Shown piece after piece: positions 19,404 to 56,457 of a DNA stretch of 64,000 nt. Origin of the DNA: Escherichia phage LPEK22; the sequence record OK283619.1; one strand, given 5' to 3'. Positions within the stretch are counted from its first letter, which is position 1. Each line of letters begins with the position of its first letter. Below the pieces are notes generated by a model. That model saw nothing but the letters and a program-made list of their open reading frames with translations. It was not told where the DNA came from and searched no databases. Position numbers and translations under genes: made by a program.

Positions 19404-19853
19404 TTAGGCTTCTCTGGTCGCCAACCCTGGCTTAAACACCACCATTTCCTCAACGTTATTGGCACTCATAGAGGCTATAGAATCGAACCCTTTGTTGATA
19501 AGTTCTTTCACATTATCATGTATCTTACCAGGCTTTATCCCCAACTCTCGCATTTTATTTTCCCACACCGAAACATTGTTGGAATCTATTACAAGAGTCT
19601 TCTTGGCCTTGACACGAAATGCCATGACAATAGGTTCACCAGATTGACGATAGCGCACGGCATTTTCTGCGTAGATCTGTGCCTTTTCTGGATCCCCCGT
19701 CAGGTAAAACCCAGCACCCATCGTACCAGAGTCAGTCTGGCCAAATTTTTCAAAATCAAAGATATCGAATTCAACATTAGACCCATGATACAAAACGATA
19801 TTCGTAAAATCAGGTAACGTTGATTCGCGATAAAATTCTAGAAAGGTTTTCAT
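19404..19853 (-). CDS. hypothetical protein with H-G-S motif
   Basis: 149 aa; LYHGSNVEF, GAGFYLTGD and a later EE pair, weakly reminiscent of H-Y-E ADP-ribosyltransferase/Tpt1-like folds. Confidence 0.5.
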   Translation of the reverse strand: MKTFLEFYRESTLPDFTNIVLYHGSNVEFDIFDFEKFGQTDSGTMGAGFYLTGDPEKAQIYAENAVRYRQSGEPIVMAFRVKAKKTLVIDSNNVSVWENKMRELGIKPGKIHDNVKELINKGFDSIASMSANNVEEMVVFKPGLATREA

Positions 19854-49855: not shown

Positions 49856-50554
49856 ATGGCCAGACCATTTGAAAAATATTTCTATCATGAATCATTGTTG
49901 AAATACATACATGTGTTCAACGCTATCATGTCAGATTTAAAAGTCAAAACCGAACGTGGCTTGATGGAAATCCCGCTGCATATGGCCATTGGCCGCCGTA
50001 ATGACCTCAACAGGAACGTGCCAGCCAATATGCTGCCATTTGCAACAATGTCCTTTGGTCAGTTCGAAATCAATAAACAGGTGACGAAGTCATACCACAA
50101 CCAAATATCGACCGCTACGGCACGGTCCAAACAACGCATTCCGATCATTATAGATTTTGAATACAATATCAGAACTAAAAAATTGGTCGAAATGTTGCAA
50201 GTATTAGAACAAATTTATTCTGTGTTCACTCCTTCTGTTGACTGTCAGATAAAGGACAACGATACTTTATCTCAAGATCAGAACGTGAAGATAATGTTGG
50301 TAAATCACACGATTTCTGACAACTGGGAAGGGGACGCAACAGAATCACCACACATAGATTGTTCATTCAATTTTCAATTACATGGTCACATCTATGGAGA
50401 AGATTATTGGGTTGATGATGGTTCGGGCGGTGGGGATCCAAACGTCATCAAAGAGATAATTATTGAAATGTCTAATGATTTGAACATGCCATGGTCGGAA
50501 CTTCCTGAGTGGTTCCGAGTTGATAAAGACGGCATACATCATCCGGAGGATTGA
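49856..50554 (+). CDS. tail completion/sheath stabiliser (gp15-like by position), putative
   Basis: 232-aa ORF; synteny only. Confidence 0.45.
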   Translation: MARPFEKYFYHESLLKYIHVFNAIMSDLKVKTERGLMEIPLHMAIGRRNDLNRNVPANMLPFATMSFGQFEINKQVTKSYHNQISTATARSKQRIPIIIDFEYNIRTKKLVEMLQVLEQIYSVFTPSVDCQIKDNDTLSQDQNVKIMLVNHTISDNWEGDATESPHIDCSFNFQLHGHIYGEDYWVDDGSGGGDPNVIKEIIIEMSNDLNMPWSELPEWFRVDKDGIHHPED

Positions 50555-50556
50555 TC

Positions 50557-51237
50557 ATGAGCAATATGTCAGAAAGGTTACTCGCCACGCTTGATGCAGT
50601 GACCGCCCGAGACGAAGTCGGGAAGGAGGCGATGGAGGCTGTCGCCCCTCGTCCAGGTATTGACTTCGATGAAAATACAGGTGAATGGTTTGGTGAACGT
50701 CCGGAAGGGTATCAGCCGATTCCTGAACCTCCTTCATTGGAGGATATTGCTTCCAAGGAATCCAAAGTACCTGAGTTTGCGGACACTGATGCTACAACGG
50801 ATTACAAACGGATACGCGACACAACATATGCCATGCAAGAAGCCACAATGTTCATGATGGGACAAGCCGCTAAATTGGCTGCATCCACAGAAGCTCCGCG
50901 AGCATTTTCTGTTTTCCGTGAATTGGGTGAACTCATGCGCGGTCTGAATAAAGACTTGATGGAAAACCAGAAAACCATCAAGGCAGTAACAGGTGATAAA
51001 GAACCACCTGTTGATGACACGACAGTGGATGTTACAACTTCACCAGACGGAACAACAACAGTATCGGTTGGGAAAAAGGCGCGATCTTCTCGCGATTTAT
51101 TGAAGACGATTGAAGATGCCCGCCGTCGCGCTGAAGAAAGATCACAAGCAAAGGCCGCACAACAACCAGAAGATGAAATCATTGATGGTGAAACAGTTGA
51201 TGTGAAGGAAGAAGACGATGGCGTATCAGAAGCGTGA
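50557..51237 (+). CDS. terminase small subunit (gp16-like by position), putative
   Basis: 226 aa from ATG 50557 (GGAGG RBS); immediately upstream of and overlapping the terminase large subunit; acidic C-terminus. Confidence 0.5.
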   Translation: MSNMSERLLATLDAVTARDEVGKEAMEAVAPRPGIDFDENTGEWFGERPEGYQPIPEPPSLEDIASKESKVPEFADTDATTDYKRIRDTTYAMQEATMFMMGQAAKLAASTEAPRAFSVFRELGELMRGLNKDLMENQKTIKAVTGDKEPPVDDTTVDVTTSPDGTTTVSVGKKARSSRDLLKTIEDARRRAEERSQAKAAQQPEDEIIDGETVDVKEEDDGVSEA

Positions 51238-53428
51238 TATAGAATATGCCCCAATTAAAACGGGGTTCAAAATAGACGATGTGAAATTGCGTATGGACCA
51301 AACGTTCATGCGCAAACCTTCTGTGCGTGCTCCCCGAGTCGAGTTAATGCTGACAGATGAACAAGAAGACGAATTCGTTGAATGTTCAATGGACGCGCAT
51401 TACTTCGCCGCCAACTATTACAAGATAACCACGATCGATAAAGGCTTTATCCTTTTCGATATGCATGATTATCAGAAGCAGTTGTTCCATGACTTTCAGG
51501 ACTATCGATTCAATGCGGTCGTCCAGGCTCGTCAGTCCGGTAAATGCGTCCGTGGTGATACTCTTGTTTATGTCTATGATACAATCAGTCAACAAGAGTT
51601 GCATCTCACCATAGAAGAGCTTCACAAGCGCTTCGAAGGACCTAACCATGCTGTGCCACTGAATACCATTGGCAACCACAATAAGTTTGTAGACAGCCGT
51701 TTCGGGAAACGATATTTTGTTGAGTCCGACACTGGCTGGGTTCCGGTTATTGCCGCTCATAAAACGAAAGAATACGCTGAATACGTTGTCAGGACTGAAA
51801 CCGGACGCACAATTCATGTCGCAGATGAGCACATGTTCTTCAATGAATATGGGCGCGAAGTATTTGCTAAAGACATGGAGGCCGGAGATGCCATAATGAC
51901 CCAGGAGGGAATAGAATTCATCTCTGAGATCTGGGAGACTGGTGAGTACCACCACATGTATGACTTGCAAGTCAAGTCCAGCGATCAACGTTATTACACG
52001 AATGGGTTCCTCAGCCATAATACCACGGTCGTGGCTGCGTTTCTTCTTTGGTATGCGATGTTCCACTCAGACAAAGAAATCGCGGTACTGGCAAACAAAG
52101 AGAAACAAGCGATTGAAATTCTTGACCGTATCAGGAAGGCGTATCAGGACCTCCCATTCTTCCTTCAGCAGGGTTGTGAGAAGTTTGGTTCTACACTGAT
52201 AGAGTTTGAGAACGGCTCTAAGATATATGCTTATGCAACGTCTTCGGACTCTATTCGTGGTCGTTCTGTATCTCTCTTGTACGTGGACGAAGTAGCGTTC
52301 ATCGAAAATGACTTTGAATTTTGGGAATCAACATTCCCAGCGATCGCATCTGCTGATACTTCACGTTGTATCCTGACCAGTACTCCGAAAGGCCAGCGAG
52401 GGTTGTTCTACGATATCGTTACAAAAGCCGACCCACGCCATCCACAATACAACGATTTCCATCTTACCGAAGTCCCTTGGTACAAGGTTCCGGCGTACAC
52501 CAAAGACCCTGATTGGGAAACCAAACAACGCGCTCGTCTGGGGGATGCTCGTTTCGATCAAGAATTTGGCATTAAGTTCCGTGGTTCCGTGGGTTCATTG
52601 ATTCCGGCCAAATGCTTAGATAAAATGACGTCCAAGTTGTATCGGGAACCTAATGAATTCACCAAGATTTATAAGGAATACGACCCACAACGTCTCTACT
52701 TTGGGATTGCGGACACTGGGAAGGGGGTGGAAGGAGATTATTCCGTCTTAACAATTCTGGATATAACTGAATATCCGCATGTCATAGCAGCCAAGTACAG
52801 GAATAACACGATACCTCCTATGATGTATGCATACACGATAGCTGATATGTGCACCGAATACGGGGAATGCCCTGTCCTTGTTGAAACAAACAACGACGTC
52901 GGTGGACAGGTTATCACGATCTTGTATCAAGAAATTGAGTATCCAGAGATCATATTCACGTCGACGGATAACAAAGGGACAGGGAAACGGATTGGTGGTC
53001 GTAAACCAGAGCCAGGCATTAACACCAACAGGAAAGTGCGATCTATTGGTTGTGCTAACCTGAAAGCGCTTATTGAGAAAGAAATGTTGGTGATCGAAGA
53101 CCAAGACACGATAGATGAACTCAGCACATTCGTGTTCCGTGGTGCGCGTTATGAAGCAGATGATGGATGCCACGACGACTGCGTTATGCCGTTGGTATTA
53201 TATTCTTGGGCAGTTAAACAAGAATGGTTCAGTGATCTGACTTCTACCAGTATTTCTCAAGACATGAGAAATAGAATGTCTTCGACTGAGTCACAACAAG
53301 TATTCCCGTTTGGTGGTTTAGTCGTGGGAGACACTCCATCTGGAACTGAGCATCTCCCTGGGTTCGGTGGTGTTCAAGTCTTCGACGAACGTTCAGGGAT
53401 GACAATGGACGAGTGGTTTAAGAATTGA
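51218..53428 (+). CDS. terminase large subunit, interrupted by an in-frame mini-intein
   Basis: 736-aa ORF; Walker A split as VVQARQSGK | intein | TTVVAAFLLWYAMF, which rejoins as RQSGKTT; overall T4 gp17-like position. Confidence 0.85.
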   Translation: MAYQKRDIEYAPIKTGFKIDDVKLRMDQTFMRKPSVRAPRVELMLTDEQEDEFVECSMDAHYFAANYYKITTIDKGFILFDMHDYQKQLFHDFQDYRFNAVVQARQSGKCVRGDTLVYVYDTISQQELHLTIEELHKRFEGPNHAVPLNTIGNHNKFVDSRFGKRYFVESDTGWVPVIAAHKTKEYAEYVVRTETGRTIHVADEHMFFNEYGREVFAKDMEAGDAIMTQEGIEFISEIWETGEYHHMYDLQVKSSDQRYYTNGFLSHNTTVVAAFLLWYAMFHSDKEIAVLANKEKQAIEILDRIRKAYQDLPFFLQQGCEKFGSTLIEFENGSKIYAYATSSDSIRGRSVSLLYVDEVAFIENDFEFWESTFPAIASADTSRCILTSTPKGQRGLFYDIVTKADPRHPQYNDFHLTEVPWYKVPAYTKDPDWETKQRARLGDARFDQEFGIKFRGSVGSLIPAKCLDKMTSKLYREPNEFTKIYKEYDPQRLYFGIADTGKGVEGDYSVLTILDITEYPHVIAAKYRNNTIPPMMYAYTIADMCTEYGECPVLVETNNDVGGQVITILYQEIEYPEIIFTSTDNKGTGKRIGGRKPEPGINTNRKVRSIGCANLKALIEKEMLVIEDQDTIDELSTFVFRGARYEADDGCHDDCVMPLVLYSWAVKQEWFSDLTSTSISQDMRNRMSSTESQQVFPFGGLVVGDTPSGTEHLPGFGGVQVFDERSGMTMDEWFKN
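51545..52021 (+). mobile_element. mini-intein (159 aa, Hint domain, no endonuclease domain) in the terminase P-loop
   Basis: Starts CVRGDTLVYVYD (block A with Cys1), internal TIHVADEH (block B-like), ends YDLQV...YYTNGFLSHN with +1 Thr. Confidence 0.8.
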
Positions 53429-53439: not shown

Positions 53440-53480
53440 CTTTCAAATTGAGCGAAACTCTACCGAGAAGGAATAACATT

Positions 53481-55376
53481 ATGGCAACTCAAAGCTTCAG
53501 CGTTGCGCCGTCCGTTCAGTGGACTGAGCGTGATGCCACGCTTCAGACGTCCCCGTCCGTTGTTGTTCAGGGCGCGACCGTCGGCAAATTTCAATGGGGT
53601 GAAGTTGAACTTCCAGTGCTGGTGACTGGTGGTGAGACAGGTTTGGTGAAGAAATTCTTCAAACCCAACGACAGTACTGCGACAGATTTCCTTGTGATTG
53701 CAGACTTTTTGTCTTACAGCTCTATGGCATGGGTGACTCGTGTTGTTGGTCCTCTGGCCAAGAACTCTGTCACCAAAGGCCAGACAGCCATCACGATCAA
53801 AAACAAGCTGGATTTTGAAACAGCAAGTCCGTCAGCGTCTATCACTTGGGCTGGTCGTTATCCAGGTTCCCTGGGTAATGATATTGCTATCAATGTTTGT
53901 GACTCCGCTGGATTTCCGACCTGGGAATTCCGCAACAACTTTGCGTACGCACCTCAGTCTGGTGAATTCCATGTTGTGGTTGTAGACAAAGTTGGGCGCA
54001 TTACTGACTCTGAAGGCGCAGTCGGTCAGGTTGATCGTATATCTGTTTCTGGCACGGCAACTGCAGCTGGCACCATCAGTGTGGCAGGTGAAGATATTGC
54101 ATATCTGGATACTGATACTCCGGCCACTTTGGCGACCAAAATCGGCGCGGCGCTGACGGCGCTGACAGATGTTTATTCTTCTGTCGTTGTTAAGTCTAAC
54201 ACTGTCATCGTGACCCATAAAGCTATTGGTCCCCAGACAGTTACTGCTATTGTTCCAGATGATAAGGGGCTGACTGCAACCGCCGTGATTACCACTGTTG
54301 GCGCATCTGGTTCTATTATCGAAAAATACGAACTCATGCAGAACACACAGGGTTCCAAAAAGTCCGATGGCGCGAATGCGTACTTCAAAGATGTCATCAA
54401 TGATACATCAAATTGGGTGTACACCTTCGCTACCGCTCTGGCCGCAGGTGTTGTTGAATTAGAAGGCGGCGTAGACGATTATAACATCAACCGCGTGGCG
54501 GCTATCCAAGTCTTGAACAATGCCGAAGCATATGATGCGAAGCCAGTATTTGCATACTGTGAAGAGTTGATTGAGCAACAAGCATTGATCGACTTATCTA
54601 CTGAGCGAAAAGATACAGTATCTTTCGTATCCCCGCTCCGTGATACGGTTGTTGGCAACCGTGGTCGTGAAATGGATGATGTCGTTGCTTGGCGTGAAAG
54701 CCTTGTTCGCGACTCTTCTTATTTCTTCATGGATGATAACTGGGCATATGTGTACGACAAGTACAACGACAAAATGCGTTGGATTCCGGCTTGTGGTGGC
54801 ACCGCAGGTGTTTGGGCGCGAAGCATTGAAATCGCGGGTATCTACAAATCTCCGGCGTTCCACAACCGTGGTAAATACAACAACTATAATCGAATGGCGT
54901 GGTCTGCGTCTTCTGATGAACGTGCTGTGTTGTACCGCAATCAGATCAACAGCATCGTAACCTTCTCCAATGAAGGCATCGTCCTGTATGGTGACAAAAC
55001 TGGCCTGACCCGCCCGTCGGCGTTTGACCGTATCAACGTTCGTGGCCTGTTCATCATGGCTGAGCAGAACATCGCCGCAATCGCCAAATACTATCTTGGT
55101 GAGAACAATGACGCGTTTACACGTAGTCTGTTCAGCAATGCGGTTCGTCCATATATTCGCCAGCTGGCAAATATGGGCGCGATTTACGATGGTAAAGTCA
55201 AGTGTGATGAAGATAACAACACTGCTGATGTCATTGCGGCAAACCAAATGGTTGCTGGTATCTGGTTGAAGCCTGAGTACAGCATAAATTGGGTGTATCT
55301 TGACTTTGCTGCAGTTCGACCAGATATGGAGTTCAGCGAAATCGAATCCGGTGGCGGCATCGTTGCTGCTTCATAA
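53481..55376 (+). CDS. tail sheath protein (gp18-like)
   Basis: 631 aa from ATG 53481 (AAGGA RBS; MATQSFSV...); follows terminase as in T4; size fits sheath. Confidence 0.65.
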   Translation: MATQSFSVAPSVQWTERDATLQTSPSVVVQGATVGKFQWGEVELPVLVTGGETGLVKKFFKPNDSTATDFLVIADFLSYSSMAWVTRVVGPLAKNSVTKGQTAITIKNKLDFETASPSASITWAGRYPGSLGNDIAINVCDSAGFPTWEFRNNFAYAPQSGEFHVVVVDKVGRITDSEGAVGQVDRISVSGTATAAGTISVAGEDIAYLDTDTPATLATKIGAALTALTDVYSSVVVKSNTVIVTHKAIGPQTVTAIVPDDKGLTATAVITTVGASGSIIEKYELMQNTQGSKKSDGANAYFKDVINDTSNWVYTFATALAAGVVELEGGVDDYNINRVAAIQVLNNAEAYDAKPVFAYCEELIEQQALIDLSTERKDTVSFVSPLRDTVVGNRGREMDDVVAWRESLVRDSSYFFMDDNWAYVYDKYNDKMRWIPACGGTAGVWARSIEIAGIYKSPAFHNRGKYNNYNRMAWSASSDERAVLYRNQINSIVTFSNEGIVLYGDKTGLTRPSAFDRINVRGLFIMAEQNIAAIAKYYLGENNDAFTRSLFSNAVRPYIRQLANMGAIYDGKVKCDEDNNTADVIAANQMVAGIWLKPEYSINWVYLDFAAVRPDMEFSEIESGGGIVAAS

Positions 55377-55434: not shown

Positions 55435-55893
55435 ATGATATACGCATACAAAATTGAAACGATAACTAATGGAAAGGTCTACATCGGTGTGACCAATCAC
55501 CCACAACGAAGATATGATCAGCATTTTGCGAATGCTTTTCATCATGGAGTCCAAAGTGAATTGTATGATGCTATGCGTAAGTATGGAACATCTGGATTTA
55601 CTTTCGTTGTAATTGCTCAGACCGATGAAGTCCATAAATGGGAATTAGAGAAGCAACTCATCGCTCAATATAATTCTTATGAGATGGGTTACAACATGAA
55701 TAAAGGCGGTAATGATGGAAGTCATATGCTGGGTAAAACTGCAGCAAAATTGACATCCACAGGTGAACACATTGGTCTTGTTTCTCTCATAGATCCCCGT
55801 TGGGAATTGTGTGAAATCGAACCTGTTTCAAGTAATGTTCATCATGGTTTCGATCTTTCTTCCATGAAGATTAAAAGATTGACGACTAATTAG
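55435..55893 (+). CDS. GIY-YIG homing endonuclease (free-standing)
   Basis: 152 aa; N-terminal IYAYKIETITNGKVYIGVTNHPQRRYDQH matches the GIY-(N10)-YIG motif with conserved Arg; inserted between sheath and tube genes. Confidence 0.75.
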   Translation: MIYAYKIETITNGKVYIGVTNHPQRRYDQHFANAFHHGVQSELYDAMRKYGTSGFTFVVIAQTDEVHKWELEKQLIAQYNSYEMGYNMNKGGNDGSHMLGKTAAKLTSTGEHIGLVSLIDPRWELCEIEPVSSNVHHGFDLSSMKIKRLTTN

Positions 55894-55923: not shown

Positions 55924-56457
55924 ATGGCGACAGTCAATGAGTTTCGCGCAGCCATGTCACGAGGGGGCGGCGTACAACGCCAACACCGCTGGCGTGTGAC
56001 TGTAAACTTTCCTTCTTTTGTTGCTGGTTCCGACACAATTCGTGACGTGTCCTTGCTGGCTGTAACCACCAACACCCCAACAGGTCAGCTGGGCGAAATT
56101 CTGGTGCCCTGGGGTGGTCGTGAACTTCCGTTCCCAGGGGATCGTCGTTTCGAAGCGCTTCCTGTGACGTTCATTAACGTGGTGAACAACGCTCCATACA
56201 ATGCTTTTGAAGTGTGGCAGCAATTCATCAACGGTAGTGAAAACAACCGCGCCAGCGCGAATCCAGATGATTATTTCCGTGATATCATCATGGAACTTCT
56301 GGACGCGAATGACAACGTGACTAAGACATGGACTTTACAGGGCGGCTGGCCTCAAAACCTCGGCCAACTGGAACTCGATATGTCGGCAATGGACTCTTAC
56401 ACACAGTTCACTGTCGACTTGCGTTATTTCCAAGCCGTTTCTGACAAGTCATTGTAA
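55924..56457 (+). CDS. tail tube protein (gp19-like)
   Basis: 177 aa; position after sheath; C-terminal GQLELDMSAMDSYTQFTVDLRYF resembles recalled T4 gp19 C-terminus. Confidence 0.6.
   Translation: MATVNEFRAAMSRGGGVQRQHRWRVTVNFPSFVAGSDTIRDVSLLAVTTNTPTGQLGEILVPWGGRELPFPGDRRFEALPVTFINVVNNAPYNAFEVWQQFINGSENNRASANPDDYFRDIIMELLDANDNVTKTWTLQGGWPQNLGQLELDMSAMDSYTQFTVDLRYFQAVSDKSL

Follow-up and report, generated by a model that had tools for sequence, protein, structure and literature searches.

The position between the Lys and the Thr of the P-loop is a "classic" site of intein insertion, and mycobacteriophage terminase inteins found at this site (TerL1-a) splice efficiently, whereas terminase_6 proteins in that survey had theirs solely at the C-motif, site f (Kelley et al. 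2016, PMC5050341). Among the Vi01-like phages, the large terminase subunit (TerL) of Salmonella phages Marshall and Maynard was reported in genome announcements of 2013 to be interrupted by an intein, unlike that of T4 (PMC3853055, PMC3868846). Literature searches for a splicing experiment on this intein in Ackermannviridae, or for a comparative account of it, yielded just these two announcements, and the word intein is absent from the family reviews that were retrieved. Here we analyze such an element in a window of 64,000 nucleotides from Escherichia phage LPEK22 (OK283619.1; all positions refer to this window), where an insert of 159 amino acids (aa) parts the Lys and the Thr of the Walker A motif, or P-loop, of TerL. 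Based on sequence comparisons and a structural model, we propose that it is very probably a cis-splicing class 1 mini-intein, that is, a HINT domain without a homing endonuclease, in the TerL of a Kuttervirus phage.

The closest described elements are those of the sister phages. The records of Salmonella phage Mooltan (MH688040) and Klebsiella phage Magnus (MN045230) carry a mat_peptide feature termed "intein" with the same boundaries as in LPEK22 (477 nt; 99.4% and 84% identical to the LPEK22 intein, respectively) and label TerL as "intein-containing terminase large subunit precursor". Likewise, NR holds an entry "intein [Salmonella phage Maynard / Marshall] YP_008772116.1" of 159 aa that is 99% identical. 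Having been both published and annotated in sister phages, the TerL intein itself is not new, and between these elements and that of LPEK22 there is no difference of substance. The S8 record and most others read "terminase large subunit" with no mention of an intein.

More distant systems resemble the LPEK22 element in location, fold or core sequence. It shares with the mycobacteriophage TerL1-a inteins a place in the P-loop of the TerL ATPase domain, whereas the hosts differ, being terminase_1 for TerL1-a and terminase_6 (T4 gp17-type) for LPEK22. No close sequence relationship was detected between the two, and the comparison suggests independent invasions of analogous sites. The best structural match is VidaL (PDB 6vgv; Foldseek E 6.6e-11). 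Both VidaL and the Cat consensus intein (6dsl) are also matched in sequence at only ~20% identity, and they differ from the LPEK22 intein, which is contiguous and predicted to splice in cis. The atypical split architecture comprises 37/115 aa in GOS-TerL and 25/104 aa in AceL-TerL, and AceL-, GOS- and Cat-TerL use Cys+1 (PMC11766414), for which reason they probably occupy another TerL site. A Cys+1 site before Walker B in three related TerLs (P0120, P0123 and P0141) is a candidate for the site of these published split inteins. Among solved structures the best sequence match is gp41-1 (PDB 6qaz, cyanophage-like), which aligns in blocks B, F and G and in the ...HN end, with a TM-score of 0.84 on the target (Foldseek). 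It is canonically split, measures 125-128 aa, resides in a DnaB-like helicase, has Ser in block B where LPEK22 has Ala and lacks the helical linker of ~30 residues. Finally, the inteins of Campylobacter phages CP21 and IBB_35 and of Vibrio, Salicola and Pseudomonas jumbo phages have a homologous core, with 31-40% of residues identical in the stretch ~45-159. They are much more divergent; several also reside in T4-type TerL genes (PMC3322345), and the IBB_35 TerL additionally holds an intron with an HNH endonuclease.

Position of the insert and empty sites in relatives

The insert (CVRGDTLV...TNGFLSHN) is encoded by bases 51545-52021, in frame within a reading frame open throughout 51218-53428, and separates the two halves of Walker A as RQSGK-TT (here and below a hyphen marks the junction). 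It is flanked by ...FNAVVQARQSGK upstream and by TTVVAAFLLWYAMF downstream. The open reading frame (ORF) and its translation yield exactly the coordinates, frame, length and flanks that the initial annotation, made from the letters alone, had given. With the insert removed, TerL is 577 aa long, and its alignment with T4 gp17 runs ungapped through the junction (arqsgkttvvaafl / SRQLGKTTVVAIFL, PDB 3ezk), and residues 28-516 of this spliced form match the gp17 crystal structures (3ezk, E 3.4e-76; 3cpe, E 5.9e-75). The insert is therefore located between the Lys and the Thr of a gp17-type Walker A, and its removal does restore an RQSGKTT P-loop, as had been claimed. The predicted ligated junction reads ...QSGK-TTVVAAFLLWYAMFHSDK, and the coding DNA of the intact site is CGTCAGTCCGGTAAA-ACCACG. 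In an alignment of 21 TerL homologs R-Q-x-G-K is invariant, as are T269 and T270, be the protein intein-bearing or not. With a GC content of 45.9% in the intein versus 45.5% in the exteins, composition gives no sign of a recent foreign origin.

A protein search with the spliced sequence recovered TerLs of ~576-583 aa beside others of 735-738 aa. In eight intein-free proteins RQSGK runs directly into TTVVAAF: P0010 (576 aa, 85% identity to the spliced TerL), P0013, P0014 and P0016 (77% each), P0015 (74%), P0018 (60%), P0021 from Vibrio phage K440 (56%) and P0023 from Vibrio phage GR28A (55%). The alignment gap in these proteins is exactly the 159 residues. At the two loci that were looked up, those of P0010 and P0013, the genes follow the order gp13-gp14-gp15-TerS-TerL-sheath-tube-portal (TerS being the small terminase), as around the intein-bearing TerL, and the DNA of the empty site reads CGTCAGTC(A/C)GGTAAG-AC(A/G)ACTGT. 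Given these exact empty sites in syntenic relatives, the insert is an optional element at a conserved site and not a native part of the terminase. The initial annotation had considered the opposite case, a native structural insertion shared by homologous terminases, and the homologs that lack precisely these 159 residues remove that objection.

Intein features and predicted splicing

Profile searches, fold and conserved residues all point to an intein, and the resemblance is no coincidence. The insert alone matches the Pfam Intein_splicing domain (PF14890) with E 3.5e-8 and 33.9 bits; the NCBIfam intein_Nterm model (TIGR01445) covers residues 1-99 with 25.4 bits, over its cut-off of 24.5, and intein_Cterm matches residues 139-159 weakly. 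Among solved structures, phmmer recovered the gp41-1 intein (E 7.9e-4), an intein of archaeal CDC21, CatC (an engineered consensus of atypical split inteins) and VidaL. An AlphaFold2 model of the insert, made with an alignment of 16 sequences, has a mean pLDDT of 94.8 and a pTM of 0.87 and is all beta apart from short helices at residues 23-29 and 36-43. These helices form the linker with the lowest pLDDT in the model (85-87), and it is in this region that distant contiguous homologs hold 10-20 extra residues. All of the best 50 Foldseek matches in PDB are inteins or intein-like (BIL) domains, led by VidaL, gp41-1 (E 9e-9), Npu DnaB and the Mtu RecA mini-intein.

Across 16 homologs of down to 32% identity the invariant positions are C1, K47, F48, G64, T74, Y77, A93, D94, H96, G114, T119, G122, M138, D140, Y150, T152, G154, L156, S157, H158 and N159. 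The catalytic set of class 1 inteins is complete, with Cys1, His96, Asp140, His158-Asn159 and Thr269 as the +1 nucleophile. Every family member has Ala93 in place of the usual block B Thr (TxxH) and retains the catalytic His, and the C-terminus ...LSHN of the insert aligns with ...LTHN of gp41-1. Of the intein marks initially listed, Cys1, the terminal His-Asn and Thr+1 hold, all being invariant, whereas the "TxH" assigned to block B at TIH does not. The stretch TIHVADEH does contain the real block B, ADEH, which aligns with SEEH of gp41-1, but T89 and H91 vary among homologs.

Other intein types were considered and ruled out. Class 3 (WCT) inteins have no N-terminal nucleophile and are distinguished by a Trp in block B, a Cys at block F position 4 and a Thr in block G (see PMC2807308). 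Here Cys1 is present, the block F position 4 is Asp140 rather than Cys, and Cys1 is the sole Cys. An intein with a homing endonuclease was rejected as only ~40 residues lie between H96 and M138, all modeled as HINT beta-strands, and no endonuclease family was matched in the insert in Pfam or NCBIfam. The model has the HINT fold only and no second domain, so the initial view that the insert is too short for an endonuclease was correct. A split, trans-splicing intein was dismissed for the LPEK22 element on its unbroken reading frame.

Were the insert to follow the four-step chemistry that is the established mechanism of class 1 inteins (review cited in PMC3853055), an 84.7-kDa precursor would be translated with the ATP-binding loop split between Lys109 and Thr269. 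Cys1, helped by block B His96, would then undergo an N-S acyl shift to form a thioester with Lys109, which Thr+1 would attack to give a branched intermediate. Cyclization of Asn159 to a succinimide, helped by His158, and an O-N shift would finally set free the 18.6-kDa intein and leave a 66.2-kDa TerL in which RQSGKTT is whole. We infer that splicing occurs because more than 250 isolated phages with the split P-loop are viable. As the Lys and the Thr of the P-loop are 159 residues apart in the precursor, the ATPase, and hence packaging, should need splicing; it is thus reasonable to infer that DNA packaging depends on it. Between LPEK22 and Klebsiella phage Magnus the intein shows a proportion of nonsynonymous differences (pN) of 0.093 and of synonymous differences (pS) of 0.726 (dN/dS ~0.04), pointing to purifying selection.

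Certain observations weigh against the assignment as a splicing-competent class 1 intein. The profile matches that bear out the intein prediction include two under their cut-offs, namely the Pfam whole-domain score (33.9 versus a gathering threshold of 35.8) and intein_Cterm (11.9 versus 15.6 bits). Most inteins carry a Thr at the block B position that is Ala here, and Thr, which serves as the +1 nucleophile, is the rarest and usually the slowest residue in that role among inteins; because of these two residues the rate and efficiency of splicing are not predictable. Moreover, the searchable literature yielded no splicing experiment for any Ackermannviridae TerL.

We also weighed the possibility that the intein splices and doubles as a conditional switch, responsive to temperature, redox state, DNA or terminase assembly, which would hold back the active TerL ATPase, thereby time packaging, and be kept throughout the family for its usefulness and not just because its loss is difficult. 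Consistent with such a role, the insert occurs in every enterobacterial Ackermannviridae isolate sampled though no endonuclease drives it, purifying selection on it is strong, a location within the catalytic P-loop would allow all-or-none control, and conditional splicing is documented for the P-loop inteins of RadA (PMC4513877) and DnaB (PMC6195587). However, a purely selfish intein would equally be expected to become fixed and to show purifying selection when it sits in an essential site, where no deletion but a precise one is viable; with one Cys only, a disulfide trap within the intein is impossible, and nothing suggests that the intein is needed by relatives that lack it at the same genomic location. 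We regard a switch as very unlikely.

It is hardly credible that the insert is a HINT-like module with a structural or regulatory role that does not splice, or else a degenerate intein, and stays in the mature terminase: some GenBank records do name the gene "pretoxin HINT domain protein", block B lacks its usual Thr and the Pfam and C-terminal NCBIfam scores fall slightly short, but the insert parts a Lys and a Thr whose adjacency ATP binding requires, the invariance of C1, H96, D140, H158, N159 and T+1 over deep divergence is unexpected for a structural module, relatives lack exactly this segment, and in a metagenomic contig described below (L010) the element is split over two genes such that a functional TerL is possible only via trans-splicing. 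Precise empty-site alleles and invariant junction residues led us to reject this reading, together with that of a native structural insertion, in favor of a class 1 mini-intein.

Distribution, alleles and split relatives

At least 80% of the intein is present in 281 phage records. For its census in TerL we used a 40-aa junction-spanning peptide; each 20-aa half of this query passes the E-value limit, so that the query alone does not discriminate, and in the sampled rows the intein was judged present where two pieces lay 477 nt apart and absent where there was one piece (these rows being a sample of the ~280 records). The P-loop halves are exactly 477 nt apart in every sampled record of Kuttervirus, Taipeivirus, Agtrevirus-like phages and Limestonevirus, and also in Enterobacter phage EspM4VN and Yersinia phage CAU_YEP3. 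The intein-bearing isolates are plaque-forming phages. Matches in one piece came only from Vibrio phages and more distant phages, TerL being uninterrupted in the ~157-kb Vibrio phages (K355, D509 and others) and in all sampled TerLs of Straboviridae and cyanophages. A word-indexed protein search with the intein alone returned 2 proteins from 4 candidates and is uninformative on distribution. In Klebsiella phage TTM-TASP117 (PV588649, 2501-3180) the two pieces of the intein match span 680 nt rather than 477, with two "hypothetical protein" CDSs standing for TerL in a "partial genome"; this broken TerL likely reflects an assembly duplication or frameshift rather than biology.

Comparison of intein and exteins between phages gave conflicting measures of relatedness. 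Between LPEK22 and CBA120 the DNA/aa identities are 97%/100% for the N-extein, 72.5%/78.6% for the intein and 90.5%/98.9% for the C-extein, with a synonymous divergence (dS) of 0.16 in the N-extein, a saturated pS of 0.77 in the intein and a dS of 0.58 in the C-extein. Between LPEK22 and Mooltan dS is 0.80 in the N-extein, 0.02 in the intein and 0.24 (mixed) in the C-extein, and the density of mismatches shifts within ~15 nt of the N-terminal splice junction. In the pairwise matrix, PhaxI (P0002) is 98% identical to LPEK22 in the exteins and 79% in the intein, whereas P0004 shares 97% identity with PhaxI in the intein and just 86% in the exteins. These conflicts imply different histories of intein and exteins. 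The pairwise identities indicate that two intein alleles circulate in Kuttervirus out of step with extein history, and that the intein or its flanks have been exchanged between lineages by recombination, though the element encodes no endonuclease. Inheritance of the intein appears to be vertical, with reshuffling through the usual recombination among phages. The TerL gene is a recombination mosaic among Kuttervirus in other parts as well: relative to CBA120, gene nt ~1306-1620 are 98-100% identical and the adjoining blocks 82-92%, while relative to Mooltan the same block is the most divergent one (83-90%).

The wider family was surveyed by an exhaustive phmmer search of 1.84 billion representatives with the intein, which gave 751 matches at E <= 1e-3 and 363 at <= 1e-10. 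In 32 of the 50 best representatives the match to intein residues ~46-159 begins within the first 20 residues of the target. These proteins consist of a Met, a few residues, the conserved K47-F48 and the rest (~last 114 residues) of the intein, i.e. of a C-terminal intein part (IntC) followed by a C-extein. Such a layout, with a short N-terminal part (IntN) and a long IntC, matches that of atypically split inteins. After SHN-T, these proteins run into TerL, ClpA/B-like, ClpX-like or DnaB-like sequence.

Two metagenomic Ackermannviridae-like contigs from different samples (L010, 3424-5788; L011, 1579-3943) have TerL split at the same P-loop site, as verified in their DNA. The first gene encodes the N-extein and an IntN of ~52 aa, ending ...VQCRQSGK-CVDGETIIKIRNKKTKEVKELTIGEFHELMKSK...stop. 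A spacer of 85 nt follows, which contains one ORF of 42 aa and no endonuclease gene. The second (P0073), behind a GGAGGAA ribosome-binding sequence, encodes an IntC of ~124 aa and the C-extein, reading MSSLLSESVDRKFIESF...RYYTNGILSHN-TTVVGAFLTWY. The solved structure nearest to the L010 split intein is VidaL (E 4.6e-5), and the break in L010 falls where the LPEK22 intein has its helical linker (residues 23-46). The LPEK22 element thus represents, in contiguous form, a lineage of phage inteins that are directed to P-loop GK-T sites and have repeatedly been split.

Related proteins carry further inteins. In five related T4-type TerLs (P0120, P0123, P0125, P0128 and P0141) there is a second intein with Cys+1 just before Walker B (...IRGKS-C...HN-C-LLYLDE), and one related TerL can have both ATPase motifs interrupted by inteins. 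The ClpA/B-like protein P0127 has a second, large intein with a LAGLIDADG-like segment.

It is conceivable, though we consider it unlikely, that the P-loop mini-intein is not a passive resident, with its alleles moving between Ackermannviridae lineages independently of the exteins and its own lineage alternating, at a single TerL site, between the contiguous and the atypically split state. A candidate route for allele movement would be co-conversion by neighboring free-standing homing endonucleases such as the GIY-YIG gene described below. In a stronger version of this proposal, the rate of splicing may set the timing of packaging.

The terminase locus and implications

The TerL gene is 100% identical at the DNA level to the "terminase DNA packaging enzyme large subunit" genes of Salmonella phage S8 (KY630163) and phage STP55, and its DNA also matches 250 further phage records. 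The whole window is 100% identical to S8, a member of Kuttervirus in Ackermannviridae. In Pfam, residues 269-460 of TerL match Terminase_6N (PF03237, E 3e-16) and residues 498-629 match Terminase_6C (PF17289, E 7e-4; 20 bits, under the gathering score of 22.6). The protein thus has the architecture of T4 gp17-type terminases, with both Walker motifs in an N-terminal ATPase domain and an RNaseH-like nuclease domain at the C-terminus. The surrounding genes form a T4-like late module of neck proteins, gp15, small terminase, TerL, sheath, tube and portal (Table 1).

Table 1. Coordinates of TerL, its intein and other features in the LPEK22 window
Feature	Position	Strand	Details
Small terminase TerS (T4 gp16-like)	50551-51237	+	PF11053, E 2.7e-6; 20-nt overlap with TerL start
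TerL precursor ORF (T4 gp17-type large terminase)	51218-53428	+	736 aa, 84.7 kDa; ORF call and Pfam
N-extein	51218-51544	+	109 aa; ends ...VVQARQSGK, which opens Walker A; Lys109 in position -1
Predicted class 1 mini-intein	51545-52021	+	159 aa, 18.6 kDa; profiles, AlphaFold2 fold, residues; Cys1 is the sole cysteine
Block A, CVRGDTLV	51545-51568	+	Cys1, predicted N-S acyl shift nucleophile, invariant in 16 aligned homologs
Variable helical linker, IEELHKRFEGPNHAVPLNTIGNHN	51611-51682	+	intein residues 23-46; AlphaFold2 model, alignment
Block B core, A93-D94-E95-H96	51821-51832	+	His96 catalytic; A93, D94, H96 invariant
Block F, MYDLQV with Asp140	51956-51973	+	M138, D140 invariant; Y139, Q142, V143 at least 90% conserved
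Block G, L-S-H158-N159, and Thr+1 of C-extein	52010-52024	+	L156, S157, H158, N159 invariant
C-extein	52022-53428	+	468 aa and stop; TTVVAAF (second half of Walker A), Walker B LLYVDE, RNaseH-like nuclease domain
Tail sheath	53448-55376
GIY-YIG (Seg-like) homing-endonuclease ORF	55435-55893	+	152 aa; PF01541, E 1e-10
Tail tube	55924-56457
ORF matching ART-PolyVal and DUF3990	19407-19853	-	149 aa; PF18760, E 2.2e-10

The free-standing GIY-YIG ORF sits 3.4 kb downstream of the intein, between the tail sheath and tail tube genes. The CBA120 record has a "putative homing endonuclease SegD" in the matching slot, and the S8 record shows there just a hypothetical protein of 333 nt. Elsewhere in the window, an ORF on the opposite strand matches the ADP-ribosyltransferase of polyvalent proteins (ART-PolyVal) and DUF3990.

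The finding leaves current understanding unchanged; what this analysis adds is the sampled distribution of the intein, the incongruence of its two alleles and its split relatives, including those at the same TerL site. There is also a gain for annotation, as most of the ~280 Ackermannviridae records say "terminase large subunit" or "hypothetical" and leave the intein unmentioned. In Dickeya phages phiDP10.3 and phiD3 (KM209271 / KM209228) the intein-containing TerL is called "pretoxin HINT domain protein", which is misleading. TerL is a common phylogenetic marker, and trees of Kuttervirus TerL would be affected by its mosaicism; as the history of the intein differs from that of the exteins, the intein should be cut from TerL before trees are built. 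Furthermore, the contiguous intein may interest protein engineers, since it is related to the atypically split TerL, VidaL and Cat inteins but predicted to splice in cis. For the biology of these phages, the element represents a further case of the known preference of inteins for the P-loops of essential phage ATPases, and phages such as CBA120, Vi01, Det7 and S8, being easy to grow and amenable to genetics, could serve to test whether a fixed intein without an endonuclease is neutral or regulatory.

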